64,000 nucleotides of DNA from Escherichia coli (GTDB taxonomy: Bacteria; Pseudomonadota; Gammaproteobacteria; Enterobacterales; Enterobacteriaceae): NCBI RefSeq assembly GCF_016026235.1, contig NZ_CP065613.1. The stretch is one strand, 5' to 3'. The translations under genes were made by a program, and so were the position numbers. The notes beneath the pieces were generated by a model, which saw only the letters and a program-made list of their open reading frames with translations, was not told where the DNA came from and did not search any database. Below, one piece after another: positions 30,289 through 45,363 of the stretch. The stretch's first letter is position 1. Each line of letters opens with the position of its first letter.

Positions 30289-31335
30289 CTAAATGTCTTT
30301 CCATTCCCTCCCTCGTCCGTCACGGTATTTATCCGTCATGCTGGATGAACGATGTCCAAGGAGCGCCTGAGTGAAATCACTGCCTTTTTCTGCTGAGTGC
30401 AGGCGACCGGATAAACTTCGGATTTCATGAAATGGCGGTGGGTCACCTTCCCATTTCAATCCGGATGTGTCTCGGGCAATCCTGAACTGTGCTGCGATTG
30501 TCCTGGCTGTCTTCCCTCCGAGTAACTTTTCGTTTTTACCGTTTATTTTTTTCAAGTTATCCAGTACATCGGCAAGTGTTAAATTCAATCTGGAAATCGT
30601 GGTGGGGAGAGAAATGCGAATTTTTGCCCCTGTTTTTTGTTGTTCCACGTATAGCCTGCCATCTCTTATATCCTCCCATCTCATAGCCGCCAGATCTCCT
30701 TCGCGCTGTCCTGTTACCAGTGCAAGATCCATGCAAAGGCCGAACCATTCGTTCTGGACGTCTGCTATTTTCCTGATTAACAGATACTCGTCAATTAACA
30801 GTCGACTGCGCTTCACTTCAGTTCTGAATGGCTTGGTTGCAGAAGCTGGATCTTCTTCGGCAAGACCAGAAGCTATAGCTGTTTTAAAAATGTCTGATAA
30901 AAGCGCCCTGTACTGGTTAGCAATAGCAAATTTACTCCCAGCTGCTCTGATTTCAAGAAAGCTGTACACCTCCCTTATGCCTATATTTTTAACCGGAACA
31001 CCACCAAAGTATTCACTTATGATTTTCAACCTCTGGTTGTGTCTTTTCATGGTGTTTGTGCTTAATTGTCTACGCTCTATTTCATTTCTGAAATTTAATA
31101 TCAGCTCGCAGAATAATGTTACGCTATTACCTTTTATTCTATCCAGTAAGCTTATATGTTGCGTGGATAATAATTCCATATTTGCCGCAATAGCCTCATT
31201 AACTGCAATTCTTTTGTCTCTTCCGATTCCAAACTCCCTTCCTGAACGTGGGTCACGATAACTATAATATCCACCTCGATTGTAAAGATTGGGTGGTAGA
31301 TCACGTGTGTTTGAGTTTCTTCTTCGTCCGGTCAT
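30289..31335 (-). CDS. int: lambda-type tyrosine integrase
   Basis: MTGRRRNSNTRDLPPNLYNRGGYYSYRDPRSGREFGIGRDKRIAV... closely parallels lambda Int; C-terminal HxxR...Y catalytic region (LLGHRSSSMTDKYRD). Confidence 0.93.
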   Translation of the reverse strand: MTGRRRNSNTRDLPPNLYNRGGYYSYRDPRSGREFGIGRDKRIAVNEAIAANMELLSTQHISLLDRIKGNSVTLFCELILNFRNEIERRQLSTNTMKRHNQRLKIISEYFGGVPVKNIGIREVYSFLEIRAAGSKFAIANQYRALLSDIFKTAIASGLAEEDPASATKPFRTEVKRSRLLIDEYLLIRKIADVQNEWFGLCMDLALVTGQREGDLAAMRWEDIRDGRLYVEQQKTGAKIRISLPTTISRLNLTLADVLDNLKKINGKNEKLLGGKTARTIAAQFRIARDTSGLKWEGDPPPFHEIRSLSGRLHSAEKGSDFTQALLGHRSSSMTDKYRDGRGREWKDI

Positions 31336-31525
31336 TTCTGATTCTCTGCAAAAGCCCGCCAGTCGTTTGAGGTGTAATTTTTTTTGCTGACTCATGAAAT
31401 AAATATTCACGCCCATCCTTTATCGGTGGTGGAAAAATCTTACATTCTCGCACCCAGCGGCGAACCGTTTCTGGGCTTCGTGGACGTAACTGACGGGCGT
31501 TCCATTCTTTGAGTGTCAAATACAT
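31301..31525 (-). CDS. xis: excisionase
   Basis: MYLTLKEWNARQLRPRSPETVRRWVRECKIFPPPIKDGREYLFHESA... near-identical architecture to lambda Xis; overlaps int start. Confidence 0.92.
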   Translation of the reverse strand: MYLTLKEWNARQLRPRSPETVRRWVRECKIFPPPIKDGREYLFHESAKKITPQTTGGLLQRIRNDRTKKKLKHT

Positions 31526-31629
31526 GTCATATTCCTGTAATATGACCGCCAGTAAATATACAGAATACTGGCGGGCGTGGTTGATTTTTAATAATCAGCT
31601 ATGAAGTTCTAATTTTGATATAATGCAAC

Positions 31630-31824
31630 TCACGAGGACAGAAGTTTCTCGCAATTAAAATTTATCAGTTTTACTTTCTGCTCTCTGGAAACGCCTGCTT
31701 CTTTTTTCCCTGAGAGCATTTTTTCGCATTCTGATTTCGTTAGTTTAGATTTTGAATATCTTGTCCAGCTGGTAGGAGAACCACCTTCCTTTTCAATAGT
31801 GGCTGTAATTTTATACATGAACAC
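31630..31824 (-). CDS. hypothetical phage protein (64 aa)
   Basis: ORF in the leftward early operon between the ATPase gene and xis. Confidence 0.4.
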   Translation of the reverse strand: MFMYKITATIEKEGGSPTSWTRYSKSKLTKSECEKMLSGKKEAGVSREQKVKLINFNCEKLLSS

Positions 31825-31868
31825 CTACATTAATATTTTCAAAAACCGTGTTCAAAATGCACTTGGTT

Positions 31869-32966
31869 TTACACCGGAATATTCTCATCGTATCCTGCTT
31901 GTTGCGTTTCGTTTTGTGTTTGTGGATCCGGGAATGCATATTCAACGCCTTCCAGTTCAATCCATAGTGCATTACGACCAGCTTTGATTGTCGGCCAGTC
32001 CATACCTTTGATTCTTTCCCATGAGCGGGAGGTGAATGTTTTTTCCAGCAAATCAGCTTTTGCGCGTTTGGCGTCGTTACTGGTGCCCCCATGGTGCTTG
32101 TTGAGCAACTCGATAATTTCATCAAGTGCGATTTCTTTTGCACGCTTTTCTTTTAGCCATGTCGGTGTACCGTCGTTGGCAAATAATTCACTGTTATCCC
32201 GTGAGGTATCGATGCCGAGGTGTTCACCTCCCAGGTTAAGAAACTCGATATGAGGAAGAAAGTTTTTAAATGTTGGGTTTGAAAATACCTGTCCATCAAT
32301 ACGGGTGGAGCGATCTTTTAGTATTCTGGCGGTGCGCCACACCTGACCGGTTTCTATGTTCATTTGCTTCTCCATCTGGATCAGGATGGAGGGTTCATAA
32401 CCGGTTTCTGTTTCTGCTTTCATTTTTATACCGGTTTTTGCCAACTGGCGTTTGCCATCATCACCTTCGAAAAAGTCATACTCATATCCTGCACGCCCGC
32501 ACATAATAATGTGCGCCTGACTGTTAACAAATCGATCGGTAAAGCGTCGCCACTCCTGTTTGAGCCACGCCCAGTCTGAAAATTCCAGTCCTCGTTTACG
32601 GTTTCGGCGTCTGGCATACTCGTCGCATAATCCGGTCCAGAAGTGACTGATGGAGTCGATGATCATTACGGAACCGCTGCTTTCCGCTTCATTAATGGCT
32701 TCAAGCAGATCAACAAACGAGCGGGTTTTTGCCGTAAATAATTCGATATTTTCCGCATCAAAGCGGGGTTTAACCCAGTCAGAGCCTGTTTCTGTGTCCA
32801 GAAACATTACCGGGCGGTTACCAGCTTCAATTCCCCGTTGCCGCATAAGCATTACCAGACCAATAGCCAGTTCGCTTGCTGTGTAGGTTTTGCCGTCGCC
32901 AGCAAACCCCATAATTCCTGCTTTTAGATAGGCCTGTGTGTTTATTGCTCGTTGAAAAAGCGCCAT
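31869..32966 (-). CDS. AAA_24-type (Sak4/RecA-like) phage ATPase
   Basis: Walker A GFAGDGKTYTA and Walker B VMIIDSISHFW motifs; 365 aa; sits where recT/bet lies in Rac/lambda. Confidence 0.55.
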   Translation of the reverse strand: MALFQRAINTQAYLKAGIMGFAGDGKTYTASELAIGLVMLMRQRGIEAGNRPVMFLDTETGSDWVKPRFDAENIELFTAKTRSFVDLLEAINEAESSGSVMIIDSISHFWTGLCDEYARRRNRKRGLEFSDWAWLKQEWRRFTDRFVNSQAHIIMCGRAGYEYDFFEGDDGKRQLAKTGIKMKAETETGYEPSILIQMEKQMNIETGQVWRTARILKDRSTRIDGQVFSNPTFKNFLPHIEFLNLGGEHLGIDTSRDNSELFANDGTPTWLKEKRAKEIALDEIIELLNKHHGGTSNDAKRAKADLLEKTFTSRSWERIKGMDWPTIKAGRNALWIELEGVEYAFPDPQTQNETQQAGYDENIPV

Positions 32967-32971
32967 AGATT

Positions 32972-33271
32972 TTAGTCCTCCAAATCAATATCAACCTGGT
33001 GGTGGGCAATGGTTTCAGCCATGTACCGGATGTGTTCTGCCATGCGCTCCTGAAACTCAACATCATCATCAAATGCGTGGCTGATTGCCTGTTTATTGGC
33101 ACCGTGGCGTTGCAAATGGTCGATGCAGAGCGATTCAAACAGGTGCTGAGGCAGACCTTTTTCCAGGTCGTCCGCCAGTTCCGTTTCTTTTTCTTCACGA
33201 ACGATCTGCTGGTAGTGGCGAGCCCATGCCATTTCTTCAATACGATCAAAAATCGGGTAAGCGCTCATCAC
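32972..33271 (-). CDS. hypothetical acidic phage protein (99 aa)
   Basis: ORF between the RecE-like gene and the ATPase gene, same strand, tightly packed. Confidence 0.4.
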
Positions 33272-35204
33272 TGGTCACTCCAAAATTTTCAAGCTTGTTG
33301 GCAATCATCATTGCGATGTCAGGGATTGCAGGCGCATAGGCTATGCACGCAGGATTCGCACATAAACCGTAAACCGCCGCAATCAACACCTGTTTTTTCC
33401 AGTTGAGTTCATCTTCGCCAGTTTCATTATTGCTATCATTATGCTGATCGCTGCCAGCGTTCTCCGGTAACAAATCATCAGCTTTTTCCGTTTTCTTCGG
33501 CTCTTCTTCCTGTGCTTCATCTGGTTTTTTTTCGTCAAAAGTTTCCTGATAAGTTGCGTCTCCCATCACCGCGCCACAGTCAGGGCAGTTATCCTCGCCA
33601 GTCTGATTGCAGGGTGTTCCCTCCTCCGGTTCGCTGTTCTGGTGCTGTTTATCTTCAGTCTGTCGCACTTCATTTTCCGTTTTTTTGACTTCATTTGAGG
33701 AGATATGATGACCGGGAATCCATTTCGGATCATTCGGGTCGCTAATCCCTTCAACAAATTCTCCGCGAGAGGCAGCCAGTAATTTGTCTGCATCGACAGG
33801 ATTTTTGGGCGGAATGTTTTTCCGGGCTTCATGGAGTTCTGCCCGCAGTTCCTGATATTTCGCATCAACAGCATTTACCTGTGACTGAGCATCCAGCGGC
33901 TGCGTGTCCTGATGATGTTCAGTTGCATCCGGTTCCACTGTTTCAGCCGTTGCCTGTTCATCTGCCATTGCGCAAGATGGTTGCGGTTTTTCTTCATCAT
34001 CCTGTTTTCCTTCTTCTGTTACTCGCTGCGGCATCGGGGCAGAGGAGCGACCGCAGGCAATATCCACGATTTCCGGATCAGGGTTGGCATGATCGGTTTC
34101 AGTCAGTACTTTGTTCAGATATTCAGTGACGTGTGCGGGGATGACCTCGATCCCAATTGGTGCTTCTTTCACGGACGCAACCACGATGGCGCGGGAATAA
34201 TCCAGCCCGCCAGGCATGGTGATGAATTTGTCGCGGAAAACAGAAAAGGGTGGTTTATTTTCAGCGATAATTTCCTCAATGCGTTTAGCGTGTGCCGGAT
34301 GAAGGTTATAGATGTCCACGTCCATTGAACGGGCCAGTACGCCAGTGGCTACATCGCGCGTCAGTGACGTCAGATCGTGGACGAAACCTTCGCCGCGATC
34401 GGTGAGGTTCCCGCCGCCAGCATTAGCACCGGAAGTCGTGCGAGTGATGCGTGAAACACGATTCCCTTTTCGCCATTCTTTTGTCAGAAGACCGCGATCA
34501 ATGTGTTCGGTATCCAGCCAGGCTGAAATGAAATTCTTAAATTCATAGGGCTGATGTTTTTTCGTGATAGAGAAAACTGCCTTAATTGCATCAGTCAGGC
34601 GGAGCAGGGCGGCATTATCCAGAGTTGTCGGTTCTGCCATGCCGCGTATGGCCAACAGCAGATTCTGGACATAGCTGTTTTCCTGATCCATCTCAAGAGC
34701 AGTAATGTGTTTGCGTTGTTCACGGGTGGCATGATGCAGGTATTTCCGATCCCCGGCAGCATACGTAAAAATGTGCAGAAGACGCTGTGTGAACCGCAAA
34801 GTGGCTACAGAGACTTCGCAATCCTGGCAATCCTCGTGGGCGTCTGCCTGCGCGTTTTCTTCCTGGCCTCCCGCCAGTTCTTTGGTTTCTTGAGCATTAT
34901 CCTGGTGGTGAACGTCGTCTGGCGCTGCTCCCGGTTTTAGTTCCCATGTCATGGAGTCTTTGCTGAGTTGATAGCGTTCACTCCAGGTAAAATCGATCTC
35001 ACCTTCAGGGGGAAGGTCATTAACGACAGGAAAATTTGTGGCAACAGCTTTAAAATAGTTGCTCAGTTTTTTACCTGACTTAACGAGCAGATAGTCCAGA
35101 GTGGTGCTGGTCGATTCAAAATCGTCGCTTGCCCACAGGACGACGTCAGGTTCACCGGATGATTTTTTCGCTTTCCGTAACAGGAAGAGTGGTTTTGTGC
35201 TCAT
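33246..35204 (-). CDS. RecE (exonuclease VIII) N-terminal-region homolog; C-terminal nuclease domain apparently absent
   Basis: N-terminus [31 protein letters not shown]... and internal block [35 protein letters not shown]...[64 protein letters not shown] match my recollection of Rac RecE; 652 aa vs about 866 aa for RecE. Confidence 0.55.
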
Positions 35205-35950: not shown

Positions 35951-36505
35951 TTATTTTAAAGAAAGTAATTGTTCCACAGTCATATTTTTAATTGCGCCCC
36001 GGTTAACAAGAGTCCATCCCTGTTTTTCCAGATAAAACCGGAAAGTCTCCAGGGTACAGACCAGTGCGCCATCAGGAACGGTTTCGGTGAATTCGACATT
36101 GCCGAATTTGTCGAAGTGAACAACCAGAGTGCGACCATCACCCGGAATCATCTTGTCAGCAGGTGGGGTGTTATTCTGGCGCAGTTCGGCCTCCATGCGG
36201 TCGAACTCAGCAATGTAGGCTTCCTTGAATGCGGCGGCTTTTTTGCCAGTGAAGCCCATCATCAGGAAAACGAAGCCGTTTTTGGTGATTTGGTACATTG
36301 GGCGTTTTTCGCCTTTGGCGTCGGTATAGGTGACGGGCTTAAAATTAAGCCGGTTAAACTCCGGCGAGCATTCGAGAGTTTCGATCTTCTGAATAACGTT
36401 TTTGTGCATTTTCCGGAAGAACTTCGCAACCGCAACAGACGTAGTGACAGCGCGACCATTTTCGATGGTTACGTCAGGGTGAGAAAGGGTAAGGATAGTA
36501 GCCAT
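35951..36505 (-). CDS. Rha-family phage regulatory protein
   Basis: MATILTLSHPDVTIENGRAVTTSVAVAKFFRKMHKNVIQKIETL... matches Rha domain pattern; GAGG RBS before this Met; ORF is open further upstream to 36799. Confidence 0.5.
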   Translation of the reverse strand: MATILTLSHPDVTIENGRAVTTSVAVAKFFRKMHKNVIQKIETLECSPEFNRLNFKPVTYTDAKGEKRPMYQITKNGFVFLMMGFTGKKAAAFKEAYIAEFDRMEAELRQNNTPPADKMIPGDGRTLVVHFDKFGNVEFTETVPDGALVCTLETFRFYLEKQGWTLVNRGAIKNMTVEQLLSLK

Positions 36506-36821
36506 GATGGCAGCCTCGATAGTCAGTTTAAATAACTCACCACCAGAGGTAGCAATCTCATGGGTGGTGAGACGCACAGGGTTGCTACAACCGGTGACTA
36601 CCGAAACCGGCCAGCCTTGCGGCTGCCCTGCACGCCCCACCATAATCTGAATGTGGCTGTGCTTGACGCATAAAAAAACCGCCTGAGCGCGGTTATGCGC
36701 AGTAGTCATCGTCGGGGTAGCAATCCCGGCCCCCGTTTTATGAGGTGCAGGTGCACTATAATTCCACCCGTTCTGGTTTTCAATAGCTACATTCAACATT
36801 TTCTCTCACCTTTCATCACCG

Positions 36822-41777: not shown

Positions 41778-42464
41778 ATGACCCCAATAAACATATTTAT
41801 GACAGTTGCTGATTTCAAACGGCCCAAATTGGAGCTCCCAAACGGGGCAAACAAACTACTACTGCACTCTTGCTGTGCTCCATGTTCCGGTGAGGTGATG
41901 GAGGCGCTTCAGGCCTCGGGAATCGACTACACCATCTTTTTCTACAACCCGAACATTCATCCTCAGAAAGAGTATTTAATTCGTAAGGATGAGAATATTC
42001 GCTTTGCTGAACAACACGGCGTGCCGTTTATTGATGCTGATTACGACACAGACAACTGGTTTGAACGAGCCAAAGGAATGGAATGGGAGCCCGAACGAGG
42101 GATCCGTTGCACCATGTGTTTTGACATGCGTTTTGAGCGGACAGCGCTGTACGCCGCTGAAAATGGTTTCAGTGTGATCAGCAGTTCACTGGGCATTTCA
42201 CGCTGGAAAAATATGCAGCAGGTTAACGACTGTGGGCGGCGAGCCGTCGCGCATTATCCGGGCATGGTGTACTGGGATTATAACTGGCGCAAGCAGGGCG
42301 GCTCGTCCCGTATGATTGAAATCAGCAAGCGCGAAAAATTCTATCAGCAGGAATATTGTGGCTGTGTGTATTCTCTGCGCGATACCAATCTACACCGCAA
42401 ATCTCAGGGACGCCCTCTTATCAAAATTGGTCAACTCCACTACGGTAAAGAAGAGAAGGAGTGA
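41778..42464 (+). CDS. queH: QueH-like (DUF208) epoxyqueuosine reductase family protein
   Basis: motifs [40 protein letters not shown] as I recall for QueH; 228 aa; located in the nin-like region. Confidence 0.6.
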
Positions 42465-42691
42465 TTTTATGGGGCACCTTTCTGATTGATTTCATATTGG
42501 CGAGGTAAGTAGAATGACTGCGGGTGCTTGAGGCTATCTGCTTCAGGCATGAACACCAAAAGGCAGATAGAGAAAAGCCCCAGTTAACATTACGCGTCCG
42601 GCAAGACGCTTAACATTAATCTGAGGCCAATTTCATGCTTTGCACATGTAGGTTAGCCTCTTACATGCCGAAAGGCAAGGAGAAGCAGGCT

Positions 42692-42847
42692 ATGAAGCAG
42701 CAAAAGGCGATGTTAATCGCCCTGATCGTCATCTGTTTAACCGTCATAGTGACGGCACTGGTAACGAGGAAAGACCTCTGTGAGGTACGAATCCGAACCG
42801 GCCAGACGGAGGTCGCTGTCTTCGTAGACTACGAATCCAGGAAGTAA
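42692..42847 (+). CDS. hok: Hok/Gef-family type I toxin (51 aa)
   Basis: MKQQKAMLIALIVICLTVIVTALVTRKDLCEVRIRTGQTEVAVFVDYESRK; in-frame upstream extension from 42635 resembles a mok-like leader ORF. Confidence 0.85.
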   Translation: MKQQKAMLIALIVICLTVIVTALVTRKDLCEVRIRTGQTEVAVFVDYESRK

Positions 42848-42919
42848 GAGTGACCGGGCGGGGAGCTGATCCCATCCCCGCCCACCTCTGATGTGTCAGG
42901 CATCCTCAACGCACCCGCA

Positions 42920-42975
42920 CTTAACCCGCCCATCGCTGTGATCTCTCAGCGTTTCGGCGGGTTTTTTGTTGTTTA
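42920..42975 (+). terminator. GC-rich hairpin plus T-tract downstream of hok
   Basis: cccgcc...ggcgggttttttgttg; long loop, so boundaries are approximate. Confidence 0.45.
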
Positions 42976-43096
42976 TTTCCGGTGAATTTGATTCGCGCAC
43001 CTTCGCAGATAGAATCGACTCACTTAAGTAGCGCGCAGGGAGAAGAGGGATGGACCCCGAACAGGGGAGAGCTATTTATCTGGAAGGATTCTGAAG

Positions 43097-43384
43097 ATGA
43101 AAATCGAAGAATTGCGTGAAATTTTTAGTGAAAATGGCCTCTATGCTGTGCGCGTTGAGAATGGAGCGATTGTCAGCCATTGCCGCATTAGATGTTTGCA
43201 ATCTCAACAAAGGAAGAGCGGTGCTGTGTTATTTTATTTTTGTAATGGACTTCTGACGGACGGTTTTATTTTGCGTGAGGACGAATTTGTCACATCATTA
43301 CGGGTTTTGAAAGAGATTGGTTTTAAGGCTGGTTTTCTGCTTTTGCTGAAGAATAAACTCATCTACAATCTTGAGCAGGATTGA
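43097..43384 (+). CDS. hypothetical phage protein (95 aa)
   Basis: ORF with RBS, nin-like region. Confidence 0.35.
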   Translation: MKIEELREIFSENGLYAVRVENGAIVSHCRIRCLQSQQRKSGAVLFYFCNGLLTDGFILREDEFVTSLRVLKEIGFKAGFLLLLKNKLIYNLEQD

Positions 43385-45052: not shown

Positions 45053-45129
45053 GGCCCTTTAGCTCAGTTGGTCAGAGCGAGCGACTCATAATCGCCAGGT
45101 CGCTGGTTCAAGTCCAGCAAGGGCCACCA
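45053..45129 (+). tRNA. tRNA-Ile2 (anticodon CAU, lysidine-type; close relative of E. coli ileX)
   Basis: GGCCCTTTAGCTCAGTTGGTCAGAGCGAGCGACTCATAATCGCCAGGTCGCTGGTTCAAGTCCAGCAAGGGCCACCA; cannot fully exclude Met by sequence alone. Confidence 0.8.
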
Positions 45130-45130
45130 A

Positions 45131-45207
45131 CCACCACTAGCTCATCCGGATAGAGCATCAACCTTCTAAGTTGACGGTGCGAGGTTCGAGTCCTCGGTGG
45201 TGGGCCA
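45131..45207 (+). tRNA. tRNA-Arg (anticodon UCU)
   Basis: CCACCACTAGCTCATCCGGATAGAGCATCAACCTTCTAAGTTGACGGTGCGAGGTTCGAGTCCTCGGTGGTGGGCCA; cloverleaf folds, C1-G72 pair. Confidence 0.75.
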
Positions 45208-45209
45208 GC

Positions 45210-45285
<76 letters not shown>

Positions 45286-45288
45286 TAT

Positions 45289-45363
<75 letters not shown>

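Follow-up and report, generated by a model that had tools for sequence, protein, structure and literature searches.

The locus described here has its closest described relatives in hok/sok, a family of type I toxin-antitoxin (TA) modules. The family's reference system, hok/sok (parB), is carried by plasmid R1, where it serves post-segregational killing, and its mechanism, in which the closed full-length mRNA hides the translation-initiation regions, has been summarised (PMC9841398). On prophages, hokW-sokW of the Shiga-toxin (Stx2) phage 933W and of the Sakai prophage Sp5 (VT2-Sakai) is an experimentally functional type I TA system, where HokW is toxic and SokW counteracts it in a manner that is partly RNase III- and Hfq-dependent (PMC8621323). 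After mitomycin C treatment SokW vanishes in a RecA-dependent manner and HokW precedes the endolysin by about 1 h; without hokW-sokW, phage release falls by half (PMC8621323). The chromosomal hok loci of Escherichia coli K-12 have been reported inactive for post-segregational killing.

We examined a candidate member of this family in a 64-kb stretch of E. coli DNA (the window), where the locus spans positions 42486-42968. At the level of sequence it carries a Hok/Gef toxin gene, a mok leader ORF in the same frame, a Sok gene that has a promoter and a terminator to itself, and the tac/fbi lock that joins the two ends of the mRNA, all of them intact, and because of this complete set we conclude that the locus is very probably a structurally intact hok/sok-family type I TA module of the hokW-sokW subgroup with an R1-type mechanism. 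The features and their coordinates are collected in Table 1.

Table 1. Features assigned to the hok/sok locus, with positions in the window.
Feature	Position	Strand	Basis
hok (mok-hok) mRNA promoter, sigma-70-like: -35 TTGATT 42486-42491, 18-nt spacer, -10 TAGAAT 42510-42515	42486-42515	+	Promoter scan
Full-length hok mRNA, predicted ~447 nt: leader, mok, hok, 3′ UTR with fbi, terminator	42522-42968	+	Rfam, fold, relatives
tac (translational activator), GGGUGCUUGAGG	42522-42533	+	Folds; pairs with fbi in the full-length mRNA
Sok-like antisense RNA gene, 71 nt	42643 to 42573	-	Mapped from annotated sokW of 933W
mok-like leader ORF, 70 codons, in the hok frame, stop common to both	42635-42847	+	ORF listing
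Sok promoter: -35 TTGCCT (42678 to 42673), 17-nt spacer, -10 TAACCT (42655 to 42650)	42678-42650	-	sokW comparison
hok toxin gene, 51 aa	42692-42847	+	ORF listing, Pfam, PHROG, NCBIfam
CUACGAA, candidate TadA A-to-I site at A42831, Tyr47 codon UAC 42830-42832 (TACG context)	42829-42835	+	Local fold, conservation
fbi (fold-back inhibitory), CCUCAA-C-GCACCC	42904-42916	+	12 bp with tac, 1-nt bulge
Rho-independent hok mRNA terminator, stem AACCCGCC/GGCGGGUU, then U-tract	42923-42968	+	Folds, relatives

Among phage records the closest named locus is hokW-sokW, ~92% of whose nucleotides are identical over the span that begins at the -10 element and includes fbi. The toxin is identical to HokW at 50 of 51 residues, the exception being residue 50 in the C-terminal tail, which is Arg here and Glu in HokW. 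The mok ORF has the length and frame of mokW of 933W, the tac and fbi sequences are the same in both loci, and Sok shares with sokW its -35 and -10 hexamers and its terminator hairpin; seven substitutions separate the two antisense RNAs, all of them in the 16-nt Sok 5′ tail that overlaps the mok start region. The two loci part 3′ of fbi, where 933W has unrelated sequence and the locus here ends in a CCCGCC/GGCGGG terminator whose loop bears an insertion of 23 nt. They also differ in position, since hokW of 933W lies at the attR-proximal end and the present locus in the nin region.

The gene set and layout (hok, mok, sok) are those of R1, the same Rfam family covers both systems, and both have a tac/fbi 5′-3′ lock together with a predicted local 5′ tac hairpin. 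The R1 Hok protein (52 aa, against 51 aa here) is 44% identical to the present toxin, and outside short conserved boxes the nucleotide sequences are mostly unalignable. The R1 sequence used for the comparison has an exact match on IncF plasmids. The antisense RNAs differ in length, R1 Sok being ~64 nt and the Sok here 71 nt.

The hokD (relF) gene of the K-12 Qin prophage likewise sits on a lambdoid prophage, and hokD is the name that the PGAP pipeline gives to the gene found here. We take the toxin form ending in TAYEPEE, which is the commonest variant in the IMG/VR set, to be K-12 HokD; its first 44 residues match those of the present toxin, and the C-terminal seven are VDYESRK here against TAYEPEE in that presumed HokD form. 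K-12 hokD lies downstream of relBE and is reported to have lost the canonical TA components through rearrangement, whereas the present locus has a full regulatory leader and a Sok gene and no relBE nearby. The hokC/sokC (gef) locus has the same tac sequence, belongs to the same Rfam family and carries an in-frame mok (mokC, likewise 70 codons), and sokC, like sokB, has the architecture of the Sok here, a 5′ tail followed by a terminator hairpin. Two differences stand out: K-12 hokC has IS186 downstream in place of fbi, and the sokC hairpin is shorter, without the 14-22 nt GCGUC...GACGC extension.

A reading of the DNA from its letters alone (the sequence-only reading) had named a 51-aa ORF as a typical Hok/Gef membrane toxin and had placed a mok-like leader upstream of it in the same frame, and both assignments held. 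The ORF was found exactly as quoted, and its 51-aa product matches PHROG 251 ("MokW-like host killing", E=1.3e-32). In the Pfam search the 70-aa product that starts at mok matches PF01848 (HOK_GEF) over all 42 model positions (E=1.3e-22). Against the NCBIfam Hok subfamily, for which the curated cut-off is 73 bits, the 51-aa ORF reached a sub-threshold score of 55 bits. Inspection of the sequence showed a hydrophobic stretch from A6 to V24 and two directly encoded cysteines, Cys15 and Cys30, the latter within a KDLCE motif, and a Shine-Dalgarno sequence (SD), AAGGAG, precedes hok at 42677-42682. The leader ORF starts at the ATG at 42635 behind an SD of its own (GAGG, 42623-42626), both lying within the Sok-complementary stretch (42573-42643), and runs to the stop codon that it has in common with hok, the same geometry as in mokW and mokC. 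A search of the 64-kb window found no other hok copies.

The sense mRNA is predicted to start near 42522, which is position 1 of the Rfam model RF01794, and in relatives its promoter -10 reads TAGAAT, TAAAAT, TACAAT or TATAAT. In a whole-window Rfam scan the RF01794 ("sok") match covered 42522-42697 at full model length, with 117 bits against a gathering score of 59 and E=5.5e-26. The segment 42522-42970 folds at -191.5 kcal/mol, compared with -139.4 +/- 5.5 for shuffled sequences (z=-9.4), and the 12-bp helix between tac and fbi was found in both the minimum free energy (MFE) and the centroid structures. In the full-length MFE fold, GCC/CAG at 42577-42583 (the anti-SD, or ucb) is the partner of the mok SD region, 42898-42903 that of the mok AUG (42635-42640), and 42815-42838 that of the hok SD and AUG (42679-42701). 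All translation-initiation regions are thus sequestered in the predicted closed full-length mRNA, as in R1.

Other partners are available to tac: 42540-42550, which gives a 5′ hairpin, or AAGCCCC at 42575-42581 (the ucb, or anti-SD). When fbi and the 3′ end were removed, the MFE structure of the 5′ end became a local tac hairpin (42524-42534 with 42540-42550), which would correspond to the published metastable structure. The tac/ucb complementarity, GGG-U-GCUU with AAGCCCC, can be seen by inspection and is absent from the truncated-mRNA MFE, so that this local 5′ hairpin differs from the tac/ucb stem expected of the active form.

IMG/VR was scanned with the tac box as an exact pattern, which returned 120 loci yielding 98 distinct sequences of the subgroup, and the MFE structure of the window was projected on an alignment of 26 diverse members. 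Paired cells made up 89.7% in these 26 relatives against 34-42% in slid controls, a contrast that is partly built in, because one of the aligned sequences supplied the structure. This has less influence on how many compensatory pairs are counted: 25 pairs had changes on both sides compared with 11 +/- 2.4 in shuffles, and 0 of 500 shuffles reached 25. One pair of the 5′ hairpin, for example, is A-U in 17 relatives, G-C in eight and U-A in one.

The tac/fbi cells were paired in 99.7% of cases among the 26 relatives, a figure to be read with the search in mind, as the pattern itself dictated tac and a prior filter had selected sequences with fbi. Across relatives the bulged base of fbi varies (C or U) and the paired bases are invariant. 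Because the pattern and the filter constrained both strands of the helix, covariation was sought in paralogues. The hokB locus keeps the helix through compensatory changes (GGGUGCCUGAGA with UCUCA-U-GGCACCC), and R1 keeps it through changes on both strands (GGCGCUU with AAGCGCC).

We next considered the antisense RNA, which the sequence-only reading had expected on the minus strand at about 42600-42700. The strand was right and the interval does overlap both the gene and its promoter; the exact span was not right, homology to sokW placing the RNA and its promoter as given in Table 1, with Sok some 30-60 nt to the left of the expected interval. The Sok promoter is that of sokW except for one spacer base, with identical -35 and -10 hexamers. 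In the work of Takada et al. the sokW -10 was mutated to abolish sokW (PMC8621323), a mutation that we reconstructed from primers YO-421 and YO-422. The predicted architecture of Sok is a 15-nt single-stranded 5′ tail, GCAAAGCAUGAAAUU, followed by a long terminator stem-loop and a U-tail, and its fold has -31.9 kcal/mol (z=-4.7). Its sequence is complementary to both the SD and the AUG of mok.

A search with the Rfam hok/sok models had been proposed as a check on the locus, and it returned the strong RF01794 match described above, which lies on the hok-sense leader and not on the antisense RNA. The same sense-strand placement was found at K-12 hokC and hokB, at 933W and at the R1-type locus, and sokC and sokB of K-12 are annotated on the strand opposite to the match. 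We conclude that RF01794 should be read as the hok leader, not as the Sok strand. Rfam has no model in the Sok orientation, and no minus-strand Rfam matches were found across 42300-43150 at permissive thresholds. The strand of the RF01794 match was considered as a contradiction of an antisense Sok and rejected, as K-12 hokC and hokB show the same orientation.

Downstream of hok there are two GC-rich hairpins. The first (42856-42864/42875-42883) has no T-tract, and the second is a compound terminator (42923-42930/42956-42963) followed by T6 at 42962-42967, in agreement with the GC-rich hairpin and T-tract that had been noted there from the sequence. An insertion of 23 nt (42930-42952) makes the loop of this terminator larger; it folds as a CGCUG/CAGCG hairpin of its own and leaves the terminator stem and U-tract in place. 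Most relatives have a compact terminator, CCCGC-UUCG-GCGGG, and do not carry the insertion, which the window has in common with strain FDAARGOS_943 and one IMG/VR locus (L056). Asking whether it was a repeat or a mobile element, we found no second copy in the window. The insertion might alter termination or 3′ processing. A simple promoter and terminator scan of 42300-43150 reported no terminator; since that scan permits loops of up to 8 nt and the loop here is longer, it missed the hok terminator, and the absence it suggested was rejected once folding had revealed the compound structure.

The surroundings of the locus are those of a lambdoid prophage that adjoins ybhA in the gal-bio region. 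All genes between 39238 and 44863 are on the + strand, and from left to right they encode an O-like replication initiator, then DnaC-like (helicase loader) and Ren-like proteins, an ORF of no assigned function and QueH, followed by hok/sok, a PHROG 340 ORF, NinB-like and HNH-like proteins and a Q-like antiterminator, after which come four clustered tRNA genes and the lysis cassette. The earlier description of a solitary hok in a nin-like region beside a QueH-like gene was therefore accurate in each part: the locus lies between the O-like and DnaC-like replication genes on one side and the NinB-like and Q-like genes on the other; QueH (PF02677, E=2.3e-65) is directly upstream; and relBE was found neither among the neighbouring ORFs nor in the PGAP table of a near-identical prophage in a sister strain. 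The adjacency of QueH and hok occurs in at least one other E. coli prophage examined, that of strain K56-43-un. NCBIfam gave no matches for QueH or the neighbouring ORFs.

Because each cis element that it needs is present and conserved, we assign the R1 mechanism to this locus, and we have high confidence that it would apply. The constitutive promoter would yield a stable mRNA in which tac at the 5′ end pairs with fbi at the 3′ end, and in this closed form the SDs and AUGs of both mok and hok would be held in helices, allowing neither translation nor Sok binding. Slow 3′ trimming would then take off the terminator and fbi and let the 5′ end refold, which would open the mok translation-initiation region, with hok translated by coupling to mok. 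As long as it is supplied, the unstable Sok would pair over both the SD and the AUG of mok, which would keep mok from being translated and lead to RNase III cleavage. When the supply of Sok ends, Hok would enter the inner membrane and depolarise the cell, resulting in arrest or death. The analysis shows the sequence elements and their homology, the folds they are predicted to form, and the conservation and covariation of that structure; from there we infer transcription, 3′ processing, toxicity, antitoxin action and a physiological role for the locus.

As to what that role is, the most likely one for this prophage-borne copy, on the analogy of hokW-sokW, is that Sok would be lost on SOS induction and that Hok would then hasten lysis and phage release. 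The role of hokW need not transfer to the present locus, given that hokW is at the attR end and not in the nin region. Prophage addiction is an alternative role, and it is possible, though in our judgement doubtful, that the main function is addiction or phage exclusion (abortive infection) instead of an aid to lysis, with Sok depleted, and Hok thereby released, by prophage loss or when a superinfecting phage shuts off host transcription. The locus sits in the moron-rich nin region beside a Ren-like exclusion gene, as would suit such a function, and R1 hok/sok is said to exclude T4, a result reportedly obtained by Pecota and Wood in 1996. TA systems have a documented part in the maintenance of mobile elements and in phage defence, and for Hok itself a role in defence has been reported (preprint); however, hok genes are not enriched near defence systems (preprint), and none of the PADLOC models matches Hok or its neighbours. 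The sole direct data for the subgroup, those on hokW-sokW, reveal that the module influences when lysis occurs and how much phage is released, which favours the lysis role. The alternative concerns role only, and its molecular mechanism is the same as that of the explanation we prefer.

It is improbable that hok/sok here is a relic in decay that no longer functions, being transcriptionally or translationally silent or lacking toxicity, the condition reported for the majority of chromosomal hok loci in K-12. Precedents for decay are at hand: hokA, hokC and hokE of K-12 are reported to be inactivated by IS elements and hokD by rearrangement, and fbi has been lost to IS186 in K-12 hokC and to IS421 in the hok locus of one examined plasmid. 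The sister strain's prophage bears IS600, IS1 and IS2 insertions and pseudogenes, and selection on the locus may be relaxed given the IS-riddled state of that prophage; the 23-nt insertion in the terminator loop could be read in the same way. Against decay, the two promoters, tac and fbi, the ATG of mok, the hok ORF and the stem of the terminator are all intact, this stem and the U-tract survive the insertion, only residue 50 separates the toxin from the experimentally toxic HokW, and the window has no IS element in or adjoining hok/sok.

That the ORF and hairpins are chance features, or that the region is merely the 3′ UTR of QueH, can be dismissed despite the shortness of the ORF (51 aa) and the empty simple terminator scan, since the Pfam and Rfam matches (E=1.3e-22 and E=5.5e-26), the fold (z=-9.4) and thousands of homologous loci with conserved structure in varied genomic contexts are far beyond chance and rule out such an origin.

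An intact hok/sok-family module of the hokW-sokW subgroup thus remains our reading, and such a locus is not unusual among E. coli genomes. Similar loci were found in 4712 of 5426 complete genomes, at a median of two and a maximum of nine places per genome. One complete E. coli genome, that of FDAARGOS_943, carries the 511-bp stretch 42470-42980 at 100% identity, and the gene is already known, the identical ORF being named hokD by PGAP in the RefSeq record of that strain. Its importance beyond correct annotation is slight, as the type I TA family is a textbook one and the nearest relative, hokW-sokW, has been characterised experimentally. Of use here are the coordinates of mok, Sok, both promoters, tac and fbi and the terminator, which the sister-strain RefSeq record does not list, together with the warning that RF01794 reports the hok-sense leader rather than the Sok strand.

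A further feature of the coding region is a candidate site for RNA editing. In hokC, hokD and hokE, TadA is reported to edit the corresponding Tyr codon to Cys (PMC5630033, PMC12214031). In a fold of the +/-25-nt surroundings the Tyr47 UAC lies within a 7-nt loop, and the motif [C/U]UACGAA is kept in 84 of 85 scorable loci. Editing of A42831, if it takes place, would change residue 47 from Tyr to Cys.

Within the leader, the 98 prophage loci vary most in a 22-nt patch (42627-42648) that forms both the 5′ recognition tail of Sok and the start of mok. We found approximately 25 alleles of this patch, none of them dominant; the commonest occurs in 14 of the 98 loci, compared with 55-72 for the flanking 25-mers. 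The alleles are reassorted against the flanking haplotypes, and the mok ATG is present in 19 of the 25. The allele in the window is rare (3 of 98), and its tail differs from that of SokW at seven of 16 positions. Furthermore, the locus is in the sense orientation within the early rightward operon, where transcription that reads through on induction might collide at the promoter of Sok, or might titrate Sok.

Based on these observations, we tentatively suggest, as a joint proposal that we regard as speculative, that the 22-nt patch is a swappable specificity cassette giving orthogonal Sok specificities and that induced read-through couples Hok release to prophage induction. If this is true, collision or titration by read-through would tie the release of Hok directly to induction of the prophage. 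Several hok/sok prophages, with up to nine loci in a genome, could likewise coexist, and the Sok of one would not rescue the loss or induction of another. The way in which prophage copies have diversified into alleles at the Sok recognition tail is in this respect a small lead.

We found that the variability of prophage hok/sok loci is concentrated in one short patch, window 42627-42648 (approximately columns 106-130 of alignment A3), which encodes the 5′ recognition tail of Sok together with the mok start. This patch is hypervariable, whereas the remainder of these loci is nearly identical, and among 98 distinct related loci it occurs as about 25 alleles with none dominant. When the Sok-tail alleles were compared with the flanking haplotypes the two were found to be reassorted: locus L020 has the same Sok tail as the window but a different 3′ end, and the IMG/VR locus L056 has the same 3′ end as the window but a different Sok tail. 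At IMG/VR locus L037 (2651-3105), the same tac, leader and fbi elements surround a coding sequence that also belongs to the Hok family but is clearly distinct, suggesting a mosaic locus, and a further locus, L099 (4246-4863), carries two tac boxes spaced 163 nt apart.

The loop of the hok terminator holds a 23-nt insertion, CCATCGCTGTGATCTCTCAGCGT (window 42930-42952), at a site where most relatives have the terminator sequence CCCGC-TTCG-GCGGG. The insertion is itself predicted to form a CGCUG/CAGCG hairpin, and a second copy of it was not found within the window. It is common to the window, the sister strain E. coli FDAARGOS_943 and L056, and approximately 93-96% of related loci do not have it.

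Although its Rfam name is "sok antitoxin", the model RF01794 hits the strand that encodes hok, as seen at window 42522-42697, L003 (602-754) and L004 (767-918). At K-12 hokC and hokB, the annotations of sokC and sokB are on the other strand from its match. The strand of an RF01794 match should not be read as the Sok strand.

The heptamer containing the hok Tyr47 codon (see table) is identical in sequence to the anticodon loop of tRNA-Arg2. It is a candidate site for A-to-I editing by TadA, and editing would recode Tyr47 to Cys. Such recoding of the equivalent Tyr has been reported in hokC, hokD and hokE (PMC5630033, PMC12214031).

Features of the hok neighborhood and other RNA elements of the prophage
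Feature	Window position	Strand	Remarks
Tyr47 codon UAC of hok, within CUACGAA	42829-42835		7-nt loop in local fold
QueH-type epoxyqueuosine reductase gene	41778-42464	+	prophage-borne; PF02677, E=2.3e-65
Promoter-like site TTGATT-16-TAGAAT	42988-43015	+	directly after hok terminator
RalA	31634-31812	+	full-length Rfam match, 216 bits
64-aa ORF	31630-31824	-	opposite strand to RalA match
C4 antisense RNA	36560-36647	-	Rfam, 75.7 bits
isrK	36672-36748	-	Rfam, 57.6 bits
Four prophage tRNA genes	45053-45363	+	Met/Ile-type (CAT), Arg (TCT), Thr (TGT), Gly (TCC)

Upstream, hok adjoins the QueH gene, the product of which matches PHROG 3217 ("unknown function"); the chromosomal E. coli enzyme is QueG. 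The QueH-hok pair is also present in E. coli K56-43-un. On the other side, the promoter-like site shares both hexamers with the hok promoter and is located upstream of a 95-aa PHROG 340 ORF (43097-43384).

Across window 30402-52867, identity with the prophage of FDAARGOS_943 (NZ_CP065615.1) is 99.7-100%. None of that prophage's IS insertions (IS600 and IS1, each in two copies, and IS2) is present in the window, and a segment of approximately 3.4 kb that the window carries (31299-34669) has been replaced or interrupted there. Judged by these differences, the source of the window is a relative that carries fewer IS elements.

The prophage tRNA cluster is placed between a Q-like antiterminator and the lysis genes, and its CAT tRNA is annotated as "Ile" by PGAP in FDAARGOS_943. 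The C4 and isrK matches adjoin each other inside the 5′ part of an ORF (35951-36799, minus strand) that PGAP annotates in the same sister strain as a Rha-family regulator, an arrangement resembling an antirepressor control region of the P1/P7 or Gifsy type. In the RalR/RalA type I toxin-antitoxin system of Rac-like prophages, RalA is the sRNA that acts as antitoxin. Given the RalA match and the 64-aa ORF that faces it, a second type I toxin-antitoxin system may be present in this prophage.
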